Shown here: positions 16,490 to 32,689 of the stretch, piece after piece
How the letters are laid out: every line of letters begins with the position of its first letter
How positions within the stretch are numbered: the first letter of the stretch is position 1
Assembly: GCA_035352955.1 (NCBI GenBank)
Contig: DAOPYQ010000003.1
Span: forward strand, 76,901-140,900
Source of the DNA: Candidatus Omnitrophota bacterium
Lineage (GTDB): Bacteria > Omnitrophota > Omnitrophia > Omnitrophales > Aquincolibacteriaceae
Direction: 5' to 3'
Length of the DNA stretch: 64,000 nucleotides
Made by a program: the position numbers and the translations under genes
Notes under the pieces: model-generated
Told to the model about the DNA's origin: nothing
Databases searched by the model: none
The model's input: the letters and a program-made list of their open reading frames with translations, nothing else

Positions 16490-17872
16490 TTACTTCTTGG
16501 TCTTTTCCCCGTCGGGGACTTCAACCTTGCCCACTTCGAGGATGGATTCGATGAACTTCGTGTTGATCCCGCCCTGCCGGAACTTCGGATTGCTCAGGAT
16601 CTTCTGCTGAAGCGGAATGGTGCTCTTGATCGGACCGATCTGCATTTCATAAAGCGCCCGCAGCATCACGCTGATGGCCTCCTGACGGTTCCGCCCGTGA
16701 ACGATGAGCTTGGCGAGCATCGAATCGTAGAACGGCGGCACCGCATATCCGACGTAACCGTGGCTGTCGACGCGCACATGGGGCCCGCCCGGCATCAACC
16801 AGTTGTCGATCTTTCCGGGGCACGGCATAAAATTATTCGCCGGATCTTCGGCATTGATACGGCACTCGATCGCGTGCCCGGTAAATTTGACGTCTTCCTG
16901 CGTTAAGCTGAGCTTTTCGCCCGCCGCCACGAGAAGCTGCTCTTTCACAAGATCCAGCCCCGTCACCATTTCCGTGACAGGATGTTCGACCTGCAGTCGC
17001 GTATTCATTTCCATAAAATAAAAGTTCTCGTCCTTGTCGAGCAGAAACTCGATCGTACCGGCATTCTCGTATTTGAAAGCCTTGGCCGCCCGGATCGCCG
17101 CTTCGCCGATCTTCCTGCGGATCTTCAGGCTCAGGCCCGGCGCGGGAGATTCTTCGACAAGCTTCTGGTGGCGGCGCTGGACCGAGCAGTCACGTTCGCC
17201 CAGGTGCACCACGTTGCCAAAGCTGTCGGCCATGATCTGGACCTCGATATGGCGGGGTTCTTCGATGCATTTTTCAACATAGACGTCCCGGTTACCGAAC
17301 GCGGCCTCGGCCTCGGTCTGGGCCGTCAGAAACGCGCTGATGAGTTTACCATCGTTGTGAGCGATCTTGATCCCCTTACCGCCGCCACCCGCCGACGCCT
17401 TCACGATGACCGGATAGCCGAGCTTCTTGGCAAGGCGAAGGGCGTCTTCCTGGTCCGTCACCACCCCTTTGCTTCCGGGAATAATGGGAACTCCGGCCTT
17501 CTTCATTTCAAGGCGCGCGACGGACTTGTCGCCCGCAAGCCGGATGCTTTCCGGCCGCGGCCCGATGAATTTGATCTGGCAGGATTCGCAAATTTCGGCA
17601 AAATGCGCGTTTTCGGCCAAAAACCCGTAACCGGGGTGGATGGCCTCGACGTCCGCGATCTCCGCCGCGGAGATCAGCGCCGGAATATTGAGATAGCTTT
17701 CAGAACTCGGGGCTTCGCCGATGCAAATAGCTTCGTCCGCCAACTTGACGTGAAGGGACCCTCGGTCAGCCTTCGAGAACACCGCCACCGTCTGAATGCC
17801 CATTTCCCGGCAGGCGCGGATCACACGCACCGCAATTTCACCGCGATTCGCAATCATGATTTTTGAGAACAT
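16490..17872 (-). CDS. accC: acetyl-CoA carboxylase biotin carboxylase subunit
   Basis: 460 aa ATP-grasp protein: [21 protein letters not shown]...GGGGKGI...[14 protein letters not shown]. Confidence 0.96.
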
Positions 17873-17912
17873 ACCGTCTTCCCGTCTAAAAGGTTAAGAG
17901 GTTGAGGAAAGA

Positions 17913-18383
17913 TTACTTCCGGATCTTCAGGATCGGCTGATCGTATTCCACGGTCTGGCCGTTTTGGACCAGGATTTCGACGACCGTTCCGCCCGTCTCA
18001 GCTTTGATCTCGTTCATAAGCTTCATGGCTTCAATGATGCAAAGAACATCGCCTTCTTTGACCGCCTGATTGACCGACACATACGGCGGCTGGTCCGGCG
18101 CAGGCGCGGCATAAAACGTCCCAACCATCGGTGAGCGAACGATCGTCACGCCTTCTTCGACGGCGGCCGGCGCGGCCGCGGCGACAGAAGCCACAGGCGC
18201 CGCCTGCATGATCGGCGCCAGGGGCGCCATCATAGCCCCCATCGAATGACCGCCATCCACCACGATCCTGCCGTTCGGCTGCTTGCGGAGCTTGATCCTC
18301 ATGTTGTCTTTTTCAATCTCGACCTCGTTGACGTTGTGTTCCGCCATGAGTTCCAGAAGTTCTTTGATCTCTTTAATGTTCAT
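17913..18383 (-). CDS. accB: biotin carboxyl carrier protein
   Basis: Biotinylation motif EAMKLMNEI. The ATG at 18383 forms an ATGA overlap with the aroQ stop. The track start at 18434 would overlap aroQ by 55 nt. Confidence 0.92.
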
Positions 18384-18856
18384 TTGCTTTTCCTTGTCGC
18401 ATGGACTTTCTTCTTGGGTTTGATTTTCGAACAATAGGCCACCAGCCCCATCAGCCCGAGGAAATAGCTGTCTTTCCCGAGCCCCGTCACCTGCGCCACA
18501 CAGGCTGGTGCGGTCATGGAGTGTTGCCTGAAATCTTCACGCTTGTAGATATGACTGAGATGGACCTCGACGGCCGGAAGGCCGGAGGCAGCGAGGGCGT
18601 CACGGATCGCAACGCTGGTGTGGGTATATGCGGCGGGATTGATCAGGATCCCGTCATAACGGCCTCGGGCGCCGCCGATCCTGTCGACCATCACGCCCTC
18701 GTGGTTGCTTTGTTCGATGTCGAGCGAAACGCCGAGGATCTTCGCTTCCCGCTCAAGCCCCTGATTGATCTCGCGGAGCGTCACTTTCCCGTAAACCGAA
18801 ACCTCCCGCTCTCCGAGGAGCTGCAGGTTCGGTCCATGGATCACAAGTATCTTCAT
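18380..18856 (-). CDS. aroQ: type II 3-dehydroquinate dehydratase
   Basis: [18 protein letters not shown]...QSNHEG...[16 protein letters not shown]...[12 protein letters not shown]. Confidence 0.93.
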
Positions 18857-18892
18857 ATAAAGAATAATTCCTTAGATGATTGCGGCTTCCGG

Positions 18893-19885
18893 TTAATTTG
18901 CCGACCCCGGCATCATTTCTTTCTCGGCGGAAGCCTGTTCCTTCAGCCCGCCGCAGAAGGCGTACACAACCCCCGCGCCGACGCTGAACGAATAGATCAG
19001 GATGTCCATCAGAAGCGTCAGGGCTAGCGCCCGCTCCGCCGGCAAATAGCGGCTAAAAAGGTAAAGGACACTCGCTTCGCGCACGCCAAGTCCGCCGATG
19101 GACGGAGCCATACTAACGATGCTGATGACGGGTATCAAGATAAAAAATTTCCAGAAGTTGATATCGACACCAAGACTGACCGCGATCAGGTAGTTCACGG
19201 CGATAAAAACCGCTTGCCCGACGAACGACAGCAGGATCGCGACCAGGACCGGCCCCCGGTGGTGCCGGTAACCGTAGATCGCATGATAAACCTCCGCAAG
19301 ACGATGTTTCAGCTTCTCGCTCGGGACCAAAATTTTGAGCCCCTTGAACAGACGGGCGAAACGTTTGCTGGCAAAGAACACGACGAAAAAACCGAGCACG
19401 ACACAGGCCCCGTAAACCGCATATTCGATATAAGGGTTCGAGGCCTCCTTACTAAAATACATCATCCCGAAGACAGCCATCGAGATCGTCGCGAGGAACC
19501 CCAGTAACCGGTCCAGAAGGATCGAGGTCGCGGATTCGATCTTCTTCCCGGAATGCTTATAAGCGTAATAGGCCCGGACCACGTCCCCGCCAAGCGCTGA
19601 CGGTAAGAACAGGTTATAAAAAAGCCCCACAAAGGTGAGGTAATAGCATTCCCCAAACTTCATCCGGATCTCCTGGACGCGGAAAACCCACTGGATACGC
19701 TCCGAGACAATGGCCAGACCGATGAAATATCCGACCACGGCAAAGCCGAACCACTCCCAACGGACCTCGCTCTTGAGGATCCCGAGGGATTCGTGAAGCT
19801 TGTCTCGCATAAGAAAAATCACGAGGCCGAGAACGGCGAAACTGATAAAAAAACGGAGGATCTTGCCCCGGAGACCGTTCTTCAT
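18893..19885 (-). CDS. flippase-like / lysylphosphatidylglycerol-synthase transmembrane-domain family membrane protein
   Basis: Polytopic membrane protein with FYNLFLPSALGGDVVRAYY. The start at 19885 (MKNGLRGK) avoids overlap with the upstream gene. Confidence 0.75.
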   Translation of the reverse strand: MKNGLRGKILRFFISFAVLGLVIFLMRDKLHESLGILKSEVRWEWFGFAVVGYFIGLAIVSERIQWVFRVQEIRMKFGECYYLTFVGLFYNLFLPSALGGDVVRAYYAYKHSGKKIESATSILLDRLLGFLATISMAVFGMMYFSKEASNPYIEYAVYGACVVLGFFVVFFASKRFARLFKGLKILVPSEKLKHRLAEVYHAIYGYRHHRGPVLVAILLSFVGQAVFIAVNYLIAVSLGVDINFWKFFILIPVISIVSMAPSIGGLGVREASVLYLFSRYLPAERALALTLLMDILIYSFSVGAGVVYAFCGGLKEQASAEKEMMPGSAN

Positions 19886-19904
19886 GAGAGAAAGGAAGCG
19901 CCGG

Positions 19905-20273
19905 TCATACGCTCTGGGAAAACTTGATCTGGAGTTGGCTAACGAGGGTTTCAAGCATTTTCTTTTCGTCGTCACTCAGGTTGCCCTGGGTCTTTTCACG
20001 AAGCGCAACCAGGATATCGATCGCTTCCTTCGCTCCTTCGGGATTGAGCTCGGTCTGCTGGGTCATGGGATTGGGAATGTCCCCGAGGTTCATCAGGGCC
20101 TGGTAGCCGAGGGACTGGACCAGGGAAAGAAAGGCCTTGGAAATCGAGGCCGGGGCTTTGGATTTCTCCGCGGGAGGGACAGGTGCGGCCTTAGCCTTGA
20201 CGTTTTCGACCTGCTCTTTCCAGCTGTCGTCGACCTTCTTTTCCGTAAACCGGATATCTTTATTCTTTTCCAT
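19905..20273 (-). CDS. DUF1844-like small protein
   Basis: Pattern FLSLVQSLGYQALMNLGDIPNP...AIDILVALREKTQGNLSDDE. The track start at 20303 is a TTG, so I prefer the ATG at 20273. Confidence 0.65.
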   Translation of the reverse strand: MEKNKDIRFTEKKVDDSWKEQVENVKAKAAPVPPAEKSKAPASISKAFLSLVQSLGYQALMNLGDIPNPMTQQTELNPEGAKEAIDILVALREKTQGNLSDDEKKMLETLVSQLQIKFSQSV

Positions 20274-20452
20274 GACCCCTACGCTTCCGTTTGACCGGTC
20301 CAACCCCCTGGGTTAGACGACTCATTTCGCGCCATTGTAACCGATTTCCTATAAACCTTTCAACCTTTCACAACTTTTCCGTCTAAAACCCACTTCGGAG
20401 ACCCGGTCTCCGAGGCGGTGGGTACGCCGTTCGAAAAAAAACGCCCACGGAT

Positions 20453-20536
20453 AAAAAAAAAGAGGTTCGTGACCGAGTGGGGATCTTTGTGGCCACGAAC
20501 CTCTGCAGGTGAGTCGAGACCCGTAAGTCTCGCAAT
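20453..20536 (-). ncRNA. candidate ~84-nt small RNA (promoter-to-terminator unit)
   Basis: It begins about 7 nt after a TTGACA-N17-TATAGT promoter. It contains hairpin CGAGAC-UUACGG-GUCUCG and a 10-bp terminator stem (gaggttcgtg/cacgaacctc) followed by U9. I recognise no known RNA family. Confidence 0.4.
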
Positions 20537-20542
20537 GAAGAT

Positions 20543-20571
20543 ACTATACTCCCAAAATTCCGGACTGTCAA
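20543..20571 (-). promoter_or_regulatory. near-consensus sigma-70 promoter
   Basis: The minus strand reads TTGACA gtccggaattttgggag TATAGT. The spacer is exactly 17 nt by my count. Confidence 0.5.
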
Positions 20572-20656
20572 CGGCGCGGCCCGCCTTCTCACCCCATATT
20601 TTCATTGCAAAAACCCCAAGTAAAACCCGGCCTTGCTAGAATGACGGGCAGGAAAA

Positions 20657-20698
20657 TAAAAAAAAAAAGAAGGGGCACGGTTTTCCCATATCCCCTTC
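20657..20698 (-). terminator. rho-independent terminator of the giant gene
   Basis: Minus strand: GAAGGGG-atatgggaaaaccgtg-CCCCTTC followed by T11, about 35 nt after the stop at 20734. Confidence 0.7.
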
Positions 20699-20733
20699 TT
20701 TGGTAAAGCCTTACGCCGCGATCGCAACCGGCT

Positions 20734-23700
20734 TTAAGCGGCCGACGCGATCCTCTGGAACGCTTCGAACAGCACCTGCATGTTCTGCAGCATGCCATCG
20801 ATACTCTTCTTCGTGATCGCCAAACCCGAGGCGCCTTCTTTTTCAAAACCCGGCATTTTCAACAAAAGATCGGCCATCTGCTCCGGCGTCATTCCGCTCA
20901 GATTCCAGATCTTCTGGGCGCCGCGCATAGCCACACGACCCACCGCAGCCTGCGAAACGGCCCCCTGAACATTGTCCGCTTCGCGAACCACCACCCCGGT
21001 GACAAAGCTAAGATTCAGAAAGCTCAGAGCATTCGCCGTACCGGTCAAGACATACCCTTTCCCTTTAACCAGGGCCAGGAACTCCGCTGCCTTGGAATTA
21101 AAATCGTGCGCTTGAGGATCAAAAACCCTGATATCCACCTGGCTGATGAACGCCGGCCGGTGGATCTTATTGGCCCACGCCGCAAAATCCAGGAGAACCT
21201 GACGCACCGCGGCAGCATCGATCCCCGAGCCCAGCACCATCGTATCAAACCGCATATTGGGGTTCAGAAGCAGATTAAACTTCAAGAGAGCCAGAAACAC
21301 CTTCGGGTCCTTGAAGCCTTCGATCACTTTCACCAGACGGCCCGCATCCCCGCTGATCGGCAGAGGCATATTCGGCACCGCATTCTGCAACTGCTCCGTC
21401 AGACCCGTAATGGTCCGCTCATCGACAAGCAATGAGATCGCGATGATCACCGGCGCGAGAGCTTCCATATTGTCGCGTGCAATCCCCTCCGTCAGCGCCA
21501 CCGCCACCTTAAGCGCCGGCGTTTTGAGCTCAGATTCCGGGATCCCCATCGCCTTCAGCGCTTCCCGTGTCGTCTCCATCGCCGTCCGGACCTGCTGCTT
21601 TGTAAAATTCTGTTCGACCCACTTGGCTACGGCAAGCTGCCTTTCGGAAACAGAAACGTCCCGGCGTTCGGCGCGCCCGGCTTCGGCGGCCTTGACCTTT
21701 GCAGCCTCCTCGAGACGCTCAGCCTTAGCCTTCGCCGCGAGAGCGAGAGCGATCGCCCGCATCTCATCAAAAGTCGCGCCCCGGTCGATCGCCGTCTTGA
21801 TCGCCACACGCCCGGCGCCCTCAATTTCAGCCAGCGACACCACCGCCGAAAGCAAGAGAACCTCCCGCTCATCCGACGTGGTCGCCTTGTCCGTAATAAT
21901 GTCGCGAAGCGAACGGAAACCAACGATTTCCCGGCCCTCGGCATCGCGGGCGGGAGCATCAAAACTATTAAAGAAATCCGTGTACTTCTGATATCGAGTG
22001 TCCGTCTGTCCCAGAATGAGCCCGGCCGCATCGGGCTTGGCATCCGCGGGAATCTTCAACACGTTCCAGAAGGCGTGACTGACCTGGTGCTTGGATTTTG
22101 CAGCCGCATTCCACACCTTGAAGTCCGCGATGTTATTGTTGTCCTCAAGCGCCAGACCCGGCACCTCGCGGCTCAGAATCTCAAGAGCTTTGTCCGAGGT
22201 CATTTCCAATTTCCCGGCGCGCGGCGACAAAGCCGTACGAACGGACGGCGCTTCGATCCTAGTGACAGCCTCCTCGCTCAGAACCCACTCCTGGGGAAAC
22301 GTATTGATCCCGGAAGTCAATTTTGTGAGATCCAGATCCTTCGGGATCATGACATTCTGCGGCGCGATCCCCCGCACCAGGTGGCGGATGTAAAGATTTC
22401 CTTCAAACGCGAACACCGCAACCACAAAATTCGCATCCAGAACAAACTGCGGATCGTTCGAGCTGACCCGGATCTCCACTTTTTTCTTGTCACCGCTCAA
22501 GCGCACATTGATACGGCTCGGAACACCTTCCAGGTCCGTCCTCGCGGCATTCACGGAAGTTTCGAGAGCCGTCGCCTCCAGTACTTCGGACTGGATCGCC
22601 AACGCCTGCTCCTTCGTGTATGTTTTGAGGCTCCGGATAAGCTCCTGAAGCTCGGTTTTCGTAGCACCTTCGGGGAACCCATACGTTTCAACGATCGTCT
22701 CCAACGTCCGCACAAGCTCCGGCCTTGAATTTTTCATGAAATACGCATTCTCAAACGCACGCACTCTCAAACCCAAATTGGTATCTTGCGGCGTGAACGA
22801 CCGCTGTCTTATAATGGAAGTCAAACGGAAAGCCTCGTCCAATTCGTTCAACGTCATCTCCCGCTTCTCTGCGCGGAGGGTGGAAAGGGCCAGCGACGAA
22901 AACAACCGGAAAGCCTCGTCGGCGCGGGCCTGATCCTCCGGAGCAACGGTAAAGAGTTTCGTTTTGATCGATCTCAGGGTCATGGAGGTATCATCCCCAT
23001 CGTCGTACTTTTGTTTCGCCATCTGGATGATCCCGACGAGGTCCATCGTCGTGATCCCCCGAGCCACACTCTCAGCTTCCGTCAAAGCGCTCAGGATCTG
23101 CGGAGGATCGATCACCCTTGAAAGATCCGAAGCCGTCAAGATGGGCTCTTCCTGTCCGACAACCGTTGGCGTCCTCTGAGCCGCAGTAGAAACCCTGATC
23201 GCTGAAGCCAGCGGCGGCACATTCGCCGCCATGGGAACATCCCGCTTCTCACTGTTGGCGCGAAGTTCCTTCGAAACAGCGGCCTTCGCGGCTTCCGAGA
23301 ATTTCCCGGTAAAAAACGGATTCAATTCCGCGAAAGTATCGCGACTGACCGAGGGCCTCCGGGCCTTCCGGTACAATTGCCACGCGCCATAGATCGCCTT
23401 AACCAACGATTCGTTGCCGGTGGCACTCTGGGTAGCCGCCCAAAACGCGGCATCGATCTCTCTGTCCGTTAAAGTCCCCTGTTGAACAACCTGCAGCGCT
23501 GTCCAATTCACCGTGGGGTCACCCTCCTCCGTCAGACCACGCTTCTCCGCGCGGATTTCTTTGCGCGACGCGGCATCGAGCATGGGACGAAGCCCGTCCA
23601 AATAGTGTTTCACGGCCGCATTGTAGGCCTTGGCTTTGAAAACGCTTGTATTGGCATAAAGATCCTTAACCGTTTTAAGAGCATCCCGGTCCAGCGGCGT

Positions 23701-31960: not shown

Positions 31961-32689
31961 TTAAATGGTTACGAATTCAACGCCAAAACCAAGTTGCTCC
32001 TTGCGAACTTCCTCTCGACGGATCTTCCCGGCAACCTGGTACTCCTCCGGAAAATTGGCACTTGGGAAGATATGAATGTCGACCTTGAGTCCCGCAAGGG
32101 GCCCAAGAGCCGAGATCCGATGCGCCGCACCAAGGTCCAAATACTCCGCAAACAGCCCTCCTTCGCTGATATTGGTCGCGATGGCGCGCGTTTGGAGAAC
32201 CTCCCCCTTCGGGCTTGTGATCGTGAGCTTCAGCGGGATCGCCACATGCATACGATGACTGCGGCGCTTTTCGAGCTGGTGCCCCGGCGAATCCTGCGGG
32301 TTTTTTACCCCCGGCGCCATGATGCGCTTTTCCGCGTCCTTGTCAAAAAGGAACGGCCCGAAACTTTCCGCCACTTCCTTTTCGTCCGCGCACACGTCGA
32401 CCTTCCCGGTAAAGCAATTATCCTCGAGATAATGGGCCATCTCCGCGGAGGCCCCATAGATCACACTGTGCTTGGGGCGGATGCAGACCGTCAGCAGCCT
32501 TCGCAGACCGATCGCGTCAAGCGCTCCGGCCTCCTGGAAATTCAAAATGATCCTCTGCAGACGGTGGCGCCGAATGTTCTTCTGGATCTTCCAGGCAACC
32601 TCCTGCACGGATTCAAAGGTCGGCTCTCCTTTCAAGTCAAAGACAGCGACCCCTCCGATCTCTCTGGTGGAATAGTGGAATTTGCTCAT
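31961..32689 (-). CDS. STAS domain - PilZ domain fusion protein (putative c-di-GMP receptor)
   Basis: The N-terminal STAS fold (VAVFDLKGEPTF...IILNFQEAGALDAIGLRRLL) has Ala where SpoIIAA-type proteins carry the phospho-Ser (DAIG versus DSSG). The C-terminal PilZ motifs are RRSHR (RxxxR) and NISEGG (D/N-x-S-x-x-G), about 30 aa apart. Confidence 0.85.
   Translation of the reverse strand: MSKFHYSTREIGGVAVFDLKGEPTFESVQEVAWKIQKNIRRHRLQRIILNFQEAGALDAIGLRRLLTVCIRPKHSVIYGASAEMAHYLEDNCFTGKVDVCADEKEVAESFGPFLFDKDAEKRIMAPGVKNPQDSPGHQLEKRRSHRMHVAIPLKLTITSPKGEVLQTRAIATNISEGGLFAEYLDLGAAHRISALGPLAGLKVDIHIFPSANFPEEYQVAGKIRREEVRKEQLGFGVEFVTI

Follow-up and report, generated by a model that had tools for sequence, protein, structure and literature searches.

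A conserved promoter-to-terminator RNA unit ahead of the DUF1844-accBC operon of Candidatus Omnitrophota

Results

Gene context and the predicted transcription unit

The window, that is the whole 64-kb stretch of Candidatus Omnitrophota DNA analysed here, carries on its minus strand a giant ORF, a short putative transcription unit and an operon headed by a gene of the DUF1844 family (Table 1). Within this operon, the start of the LPG_synthase_TM gene overlaps the DUF1844 stop codon as ATGA. The giant ORF encodes 3684 aa, and no Pfam domain was detected in it at E <= 0.001. After it comes a T11 terminator of its own, as a sequence-only reading of this DNA had proposed: a stem (20701..20666) that overlaps the T run (20668..20658), with a folding energy of -21.9 kcal/mol (z = -4.3), separates the giant gene from the promoter of the RNA.

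That promoter, described in the same reading as TTGACA-N17-TATAGT, was recovered by our scan of the minus strand, where it matched the consensus at 11 of 12 positions. Its spacing lies within the 16-18 nt expected of a sigma-70-type promoter, and the hexamers are placed 5' of the predicted transcript. Four promoter-like sites were detected in 19000..22000, compared to 1.4 +/- 1.1 in shuffled sequences, and the RNA promoter was the best of them. Transcription probably starts at an A at about 20536, located 7 nt past the -10 hexamer and 2-4 nt before the first hairpin (P1), while the 3' end of the transcript was placed inside the U9 run. The promoter, the fold and the match to a covariance model of the RNA (R1) together predict a length that agrees with the roughly 84 nt estimated earlier. 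R1 matched 20454..20538 with 100.9 bits (E = 5e-22), and scanning with filters off found the unit to be single-copy in the window. The 85-nt unit folded with -33.5 kcal/mol (z = -5.65), and none of 200 shuffles was equally stable.

The surroundings of the giant gene vary among relatives. Counterparts of about 3700 aa with a Response_reg match were found at two loci (L037 and L038), where an IS200/IS605-type Y1 transposase gene (PF01797; L038:2143-2799, same DNA in L037) lies between the giant gene and the RNA promoter, with about 80 nt from its end to the RNA. The gene directly before the RNA in basal lineages is a PilZ-like one of about 240 aa. In the window, it is the giant gene that has a STAS-PilZ gene upstream of it, a gene order which suggests that the giant gene was inserted between the STAS-PilZ gene and the RNA.

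Table 1 Features of the locus in the window (window coordinates).
Feature	Position	Strand	Description
accC, accB, aroQ, LPG_synthase_TM	16490..19908	-	rest of the DUF1844 operon
DUF1844 gene, 122 aa	19905..20273	-	Pfam PF08899, E = 1.5e-23; heads the operon
Second promoter-like site, TTGAAA-N18-TACAAT	20334..20363	-	10/12 consensus match; 60 nt upstream of the DUF1844 start
Nested hairpin followed by UUUU	20388..20423	-	-20.4 kcal/mol, z = -2.9; terminator-like, lineage-specific
Predicted primary transcript, about 81-84 nt	20453..20536	-	covariance-model match and fold
U9 tract	20453..20461	-	putative intrinsic terminator
P2 terminator hairpin, 14 bp, 16-nt loop	20461..20504	-	arms AGAGGUUCGUGGCC / GGUCACGAACCUCU; fold and covariation
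P2-loop motif UCCCCACU	20476..20483	-	family consensus UCCYCAC, 3' side of the loop
Linker motif ACUCACCU	20507..20514	-	single-stranded; same in 22/22 aligned sequences
P1 hairpin, CGAGAC(U)-UACG-(G)GUCUCG	20515..20532	-	fold and covariation
-10 hexamer TATAGT	20543..20548	-	TATAAT or TATAAA in relatives
-35 hexamer TTGACA	20566..20571	-	start of the 11/12 promoter match; 17 nt from the -10 hexamer
Giant-gene terminator, stem and T11	20658..20701	-	separates the giant gene from the RNA promoter
Giant ORF, 3684 aa	20734-31788	-	ends at 20734
STAS-PilZ gene	31964-32689		upstream of the giant gene

Conservation and distribution of the unit

Relatives of the DUF1844 gene with 70-84% protein identity were taken from 16 Candidatus Omnitrophota assemblies, more distant relatives (about 44-63% identical to the window protein) were located through a protein search, after which their contigs were retrieved, and a context-blind DNA pattern made of the invariant parts of the RNA alone added 12 metagenome stretches. 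Each of the resulting 41 homologous loci, as well as the window, contained exactly one unit, giving 28 distinct RNA sequences, and R1 scored 75-102 bits on all of them. The conservation in relatives on which the sequence-only reading had made its proposal depend was thus found. In the window clade (15 species), the core of 80 nt was identical or showed 1-3 differences, while the spacer within the promoter and the sequence past the U-tract diverge freely. Compared to the window copy, the RNA core of closer relatives was 92-97% identical and their DUF1844 coding DNA 62-81%; for the most distant relatives the corresponding values were 67-83% and 56-62%, and flanking DNA was 33-67% identical in closer and distant relatives. 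Family-wide, the RNA has changed less in sequence than the coding DNA of the gene next to it, and these comparisons indicate that the predicted RNA is under intense purifying selection.

The promoter was conserved as well. At all 32 distinct homologous loci the -35 hexamer was TTGACA, TTGACT, TTGACG or GTGACA, the predicted sigma-70-type promoter matched the consensus at 9-12 of 12 positions, and the distance from the end of the -10 hexamer to the start of P1 was a constant 9-11 nt. It was kept regardless of the upstream gene, which could be the giant gene, a STAS/PilZ-like gene, miaA, hflX or the gene of an IAT_beta protein. It is through conservation, not through the consensus scan, that the predicted unit is demonstrated to be beyond chance.

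No match to R1 was found in the DUF1844 loci of other phyla (L017-L036). In the Rfam scan that had been suggested along with the original reading, no Rfam 15 family reached its gathering threshold in the whole window apart from three tRNAs, and the best hit at E <= 10 in 20200..20800 was STnc390 (20.7 bits, compared to a threshold of 50 bits), which covered the generic terminator only. RsaE (RF01820), T-box, PyrR site, c-di-GMP, SAM and other riboswitches, 6S, SRP and tmRNA likewise had no Rfam match here, and ARAGORN reported no tRNA or tmRNA at the unit. Searches of the literature for small RNAs and riboswitches of Omnitrophota gave nothing relevant and no description of a regulatory RNA. 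A mobile or viral origin was also considered and rejected (0 IMG/VR matches for the DNA pattern; one copy in the window). The unit can be identified from these comparisons as a putative Omnitrophota-specific structured RNA gene, nearly invariant throughout this uncultured phylum. It is best classed as a new family within a known kind of RNA, for which neither Rfam 15 nor the literature searched has an entry.

Secondary structure and unpaired motifs

The short 5' hairpin proposed earlier corresponds to P1, in which three of seven pairs showed compensatory changes. Its stem core, GAGAC/GUCUC, is nearly invariant across the family, and its loop is variable (UUACGG, GUAA, GAAA, UUA or GCUCAG). For the terminator, the earlier reading had the position and the U9 run right, but the stem comprises 14 bp with a large conserved loop instead of 10 bp; the terminator was missed by a simple scan because the P2 loop is larger than usual. 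Across the family, P2 has a stem of 13-14 bp and a loop of 14-18 nt, with an invariant base, (A)GAGGUUC / GARCCUC(U), and a covarying upper stem. P2 alone folded with -24.0 kcal/mol (z = -6.15), and a U-run of 5-9 nt was present in every homologue, the U-tract never being missing. The modelled G+C-rich hairpin followed by a U run has the make-up of an intrinsic (Rho-independent) terminator.

Covariation, which had been named earlier as a check in relatives, was evaluated on a model-guided alignment of 22 sequences (A3). Standard pairs filled 97% of cells, and compensatory double changes occurred at 7 of 21 pairs; one P2 position, for instance, had G-C, C-G and U-A, and the following one U-A or C-G. 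The observed covariation score was reached by none of 500 shuffles, and pairing fell to 32-50% in a control in which the partners were slid by 1-3 columns. RNAalifold independently returned the same two helices. The values for P2 were equal on a plain MAFFT alignment (A1) and on the model-fitted alignment (98% of cells paired, 4 compensatory pairs), and the covariation result is therefore independent of model fitting. The sole alternative helix would join the 3' arm of P1 to the 5' base of P2 through 6 bp, including 2-3 G-U pairs; it could form in 22 of 22 sequences, showed no compensatory change and was much weaker than P1 and P2.

Between and within the hairpins lie the unpaired motifs ACUCACCU and UCCYCAC. 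The latter (UCCCCAC in the window, UCCUCAC in L046) was invariant and unpaired across the family, and the 5' half of the same loop differed in sequence and length among homologues. Both motifs are pyrimidine-rich and can form pairs neither with one another nor with the P1 loop, itself variable. Neither had a partner within the RNA or within the operon, and no conserved site complementary to them was found in the downstream operon. Pairing with the DUF1844 RBS was considered and rejected, as the duplex energies equalled those of shuffled motifs (mean z of -0.07 and +0.23, 31 loci). A ligand aptamer is also unlikely, the RNA having only two simple hairpins and the motifs no tertiary partner.

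Linkage to the DUF1844 operon

At all loci with enough downstream DNA (39 of 39), the DUF1844 gene followed on the same strand 4-351 nt past the U-tract; the 12 loci obtained with the context-blind pattern are among them. The unit had been read as standing alone; this holds for its predicted promoter and terminator, which are its own, but not for its context, as it was coupled to the DUF1844 operon at each of these loci. The operon order DUF1844, LPG_synthase_TM, sometimes Trm112, then aroQ, accB and accC was the same in all fetched relatives. In divergent lineages, whose DUF1844 proteins share 44-61% identity with that of the window, the distance from the U-tract to the start codon was 4-39 nt where start codons were located, and 11-36 nt at the same loci by tblastn projection, with an RBS only inside the gap. 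Since a gap of 4-39 nt leaves no room for a promoter, the RNA promoter would be the only plausible DUF1844 promoter in these lineages, and the operon must be transcribed through the terminator. The predicted RNA physically forms the 5' leader of the DUF1844-accBC operon, and its location in the putative 5' UTR, with a promoter that would be shared with the downstream gene, is that of a transcription attenuator or riboswitch.

Gaps in the window clade have become longer, at 30-351 nt. These spacers are mostly without a sigma-70-like site, the second promoter-like site of the window being the exception: no site as strong was found in the spacers of relatives, and it may free the operon partly from read-through in the window genome. 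The downstream nested hairpin seen in the first reading was also found, and relatives have other tandem hairpin modules in its place. Spacer growth, from about 15-40 nt to up to 351 nt, has occurred by tandem modules of about 55 nt, each with a U-rich mini-hairpin, GCGAACGGACTGATCC and a GC-rich hairpin (GATCCGCC..GGCGGAT) in this order. Expanded spacers were observed in the window (20274-20452) and at three other loci (L006:2483-2833, L016:3738-4000 and L041:2696-3000).

The AlphaFold model of the DUF1844 protein combines a disordered N-terminal part, which contains an invariant KDIRF..KKxD..WK motif, with a three-helix bundle at the C-terminal end that is modelled confidently (residues 46-121, pLDDT above 90). 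No sequence match was found in the PDB, and a Foldseek search of the model against the PDB returned non-significant helical-bundle matches only. Outside Omnitrophota, DUF1844 has other neighbours and no comparable leader; by eye, the gene was seen to follow an smpB-like gene in Phycisphaerae (L017, L023 and L025) and an ftsY-like gene in Poseidoniales / marine group II archaea (L019-L036).

Discussion

The explanation that we favour, although tentatively, is a leader that terminates transcription by default, with read-through set by a factor acting on the C-rich motifs and with release of an abundant short RNA. The unit would be the obligatory 5' leader of the DUF1844 operon; most transcripts would end at the U-tract and yield an abundant RNA of about 80 nt protected by its 5' hairpin, and the operon would be expressed by read-through only. 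The level of read-through would be set by a trans factor, most likely a single-stranded-RNA-binding protein, that recognises the P2-loop motif and/or the invariant C-rich block ACUCACCU-N3-4-GAGGUUC, a block which overlaps the 5' arm of the terminator. The released RNA would be a by-product or a second effector that may also act in trans. Strict linkage, short gaps, the conserved promoter, covariation and purifying selection all support a leader. The invariant unpaired motifs, having no partner within the RNA or the operon, point to an external partner, and the position of a strong terminator ahead of accB and accC, two genes that fatty-acid synthesis cannot do without, argues that read-through is provided for in some way.

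Several observations argue against an attenuator leader. No convincing antiterminator was found, and the terminator base and loop are among the most conserved parts of the RNA, an unusual feature in an expression platform and one that better suits a functional RNA or RNA-protein particle. The RNA has stayed invariant despite hairpin-filled spacers of 30-351 nt, and the window has a second terminator-like hairpin as well as a 10/12 promoter-like site. The linkage alone could possibly reflect the inertia of promoter sharing; an arrangement in which an RNA and a protein gene share a promoter is found in E. coli for 6S RNA and ygfA and for tRNA and tufB. The small RNA and the leader between which the sequence-only reading had left the choice are still the leading explanations. 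As regards its suggestion of a riboswitch, a metabolite aptamer appears unlikely because the unpaired motifs are both pyrimidine-rich and without a tertiary partner, and no alternative or tertiary pairing was supported.

A trans-acting small RNA, in which the terminated RNA of 80 nt would itself be the product and whose C-rich seeds (ACUCACCU and the UCCCCAC of the loop) would repress the translation of distant mRNAs at G-rich RBSs while the operon makes use of leaky read-through, is the runner-up, and we regard it as somewhat unlikely. RsaE/RoxS and the staphylococcal 'UCCC' small RNAs work in this manner. It would fit the near-consensus promoter, the strong, uninterrupted terminator and the 5' hairpin start typical of stable RNAs, and it would account for the most conserved unpaired nucleotides being C-rich and partnerless inside the RNA and the operon. 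The lack of a supported antiterminator, the conserved sequence of the terminator hairpin itself and an RNA sequence that is unchanged even where long spacers part it from the gene also speak for it. Octamers complementary to the motifs were under-represented in the window, AGGTGAGT occurring 16 times with at most one mismatch compared to 26.7 +/- 5.0 in dinucleotide shuffles, and AGTGGGGA 27 times compared to 45.8 +/- 6.9. This depletion could stem from the avoidance of off-target pairing or merely of Shine-Dalgarno-like sequences, and ACUCACCU resembles the anti-Shine-Dalgarno sequence. However, no exact complementary site was found near a start codon in the 64-kb window, nor any target there, and there was no Rfam match to RsaE or another small RNA family. 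Seed pairing also does not explain why the stems, including the terminator base, are invariant in sequence, and synteny with gaps of 4-39 nt across deep divergence is not usual for an RNA that acts purely in trans. A constitutive, unregulated leader would suit the architecture and linkage and the lack of a supported alternative structure: P1 would act as a stabiliser, P2 as a fixed partial terminator or insulator that damps the strong promoter, and the short RNA would be a by-product. Such a leader would need structure alone, yet unpaired motifs of 8 and 7 nt and the bases of both stems are invariant across genomes whose DUF1844 proteins are only 44-60% identical, and the large conserved loop would weaken a plain terminator, which makes this explanation improbable.

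We consider it quite improbable that the RNA is a subunit of a housekeeping RNA-protein particle, for instance with DUF1844, or is directed at rRNA. Conservation near position by position, with only the distal stem and loop varying, is typical of particle RNAs, and the strict adjacency to one protein gene recalls tmRNA next to smpB and Y RNA next to rsr, but DUF1844 occurs in other phyla without the RNA, and the protein is modelled as a plain three-helix bundle that bears no likeness to RNA-binding proteins. Complementarity to both motifs was present in E. coli 16S rRNA (111-118 and 356-363); these matches are not significant, as 18% and 11-43% of letter-shuffled motifs also matched E. coli 16S. 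A bolder version, a phylum-wide riboregulator acting on ribosomes either by pairing of the C-rich octamers with segments of the 16S 5' domain or as a DUF1844 particle, has very little probability in our judgement. Its 16S targets would be the universally conserved G-rich segments GGGUGAGU (E. coli 111-118) and AGUGGGGA (356-363). If true, it would imply an effect on ribosome assembly or function, as a bacterial counterpart of a snoRNA-like chaperone, and the UCCUCAC of L046 would be expected to co-vary with a AGUGAGGA variant of 16S. Least credible of all, and close to negligible, is either a small protein gene whose leaderless AUG would open the conserved block, or an element that arose by chance or acts at the DNA level. 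The block does begin with an AUG in the window clade, near the predicted transcription start, but this AUG is AUU in L005 and L014 and missing from basal lineages; any frame is broken by indels of 1-4 nt in the loops and hairpins, and substitutions preserve base pairs, not codons. The overlapping ORFs (81, 69 and 73 aa) had no Pfam match or conserved frame and the indels of homologues were not multiples of three, which bears out the earlier view that no credible ORF fits here.

The bacteria of the uncultured phylum Omnitrophota are very small and occur worldwide. Two products of the operon behind the RNA, biotin carboxylase and its carrier protein, take part in the first step of fatty-acid synthesis; the others are a shikimate-pathway enzyme and two uncharacterised proteins. 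Should the unit be a regulated attenuator, it would represent a new RNA-factor pair governing membrane-lipid supply; should it work in trans, Omnitrophota would have in it their first candidate global small RNA. On either reading, R1 offers annotators a model of the RNA, and DUF1844 gains its first conserved genetic partner.

In its proposed working, the RNA would be like a leader that contains a terminator or like a small RNA derived from a 5' UTR. Among known systems, it resembles RsaE/RoxS (RF01820) and the staphylococcal 'UCCC-motif' small RNAs in its size (about 80-100 nt), its high conservation, its end at an intrinsic terminator and its C-rich motifs exposed in a hairpin loop and a linker. 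It differs from them in having no covariance-model match at E <= 10, in belonging to another phylum and in being bound to one downstream operon. Protein-mediated antitermination is known from HutP-hut, from the RAT of LicT/SacY and from the leader hairpins of LoaP/NusG paralogues. The Omnitrophota RNA is similar to these leaders in its conserved sequence at or before the 5' arm of the terminator and in the small hairpin near its 5' end, but it contains no UAG repeats, RAT hairpin or ops-like element, and no cognate regulator gene was identified near the unit. Terminated leader products of Listeria (SreA/SreB, from SAM riboswitches) and Sinorhizobium (rnTrpL, from the trp attenuator) are also able to act in trans. 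Here the likeness lies in a promoter shared with the operon, a terminator in the 5' UTR and a short, stable terminated RNA (about 80 nt, as predicted), whereas the Omnitrophota RNA is without an aptamer, leader peptide or supported antiterminator; what it conserves is two C-rich single strands and the terminator hairpin, with no likeness to Rfam leaders. As in E. coli ssrS-ygfA and tRNA-tufB, a strong promoter would make an abundant RNA first, and the protein genes behind it would need continued transcription. The ssrS and tRNA-tufB RNAs are freed through processing and are members of known, universal families, whereas the Omnitrophota RNA would be ended by an intrinsic terminator.
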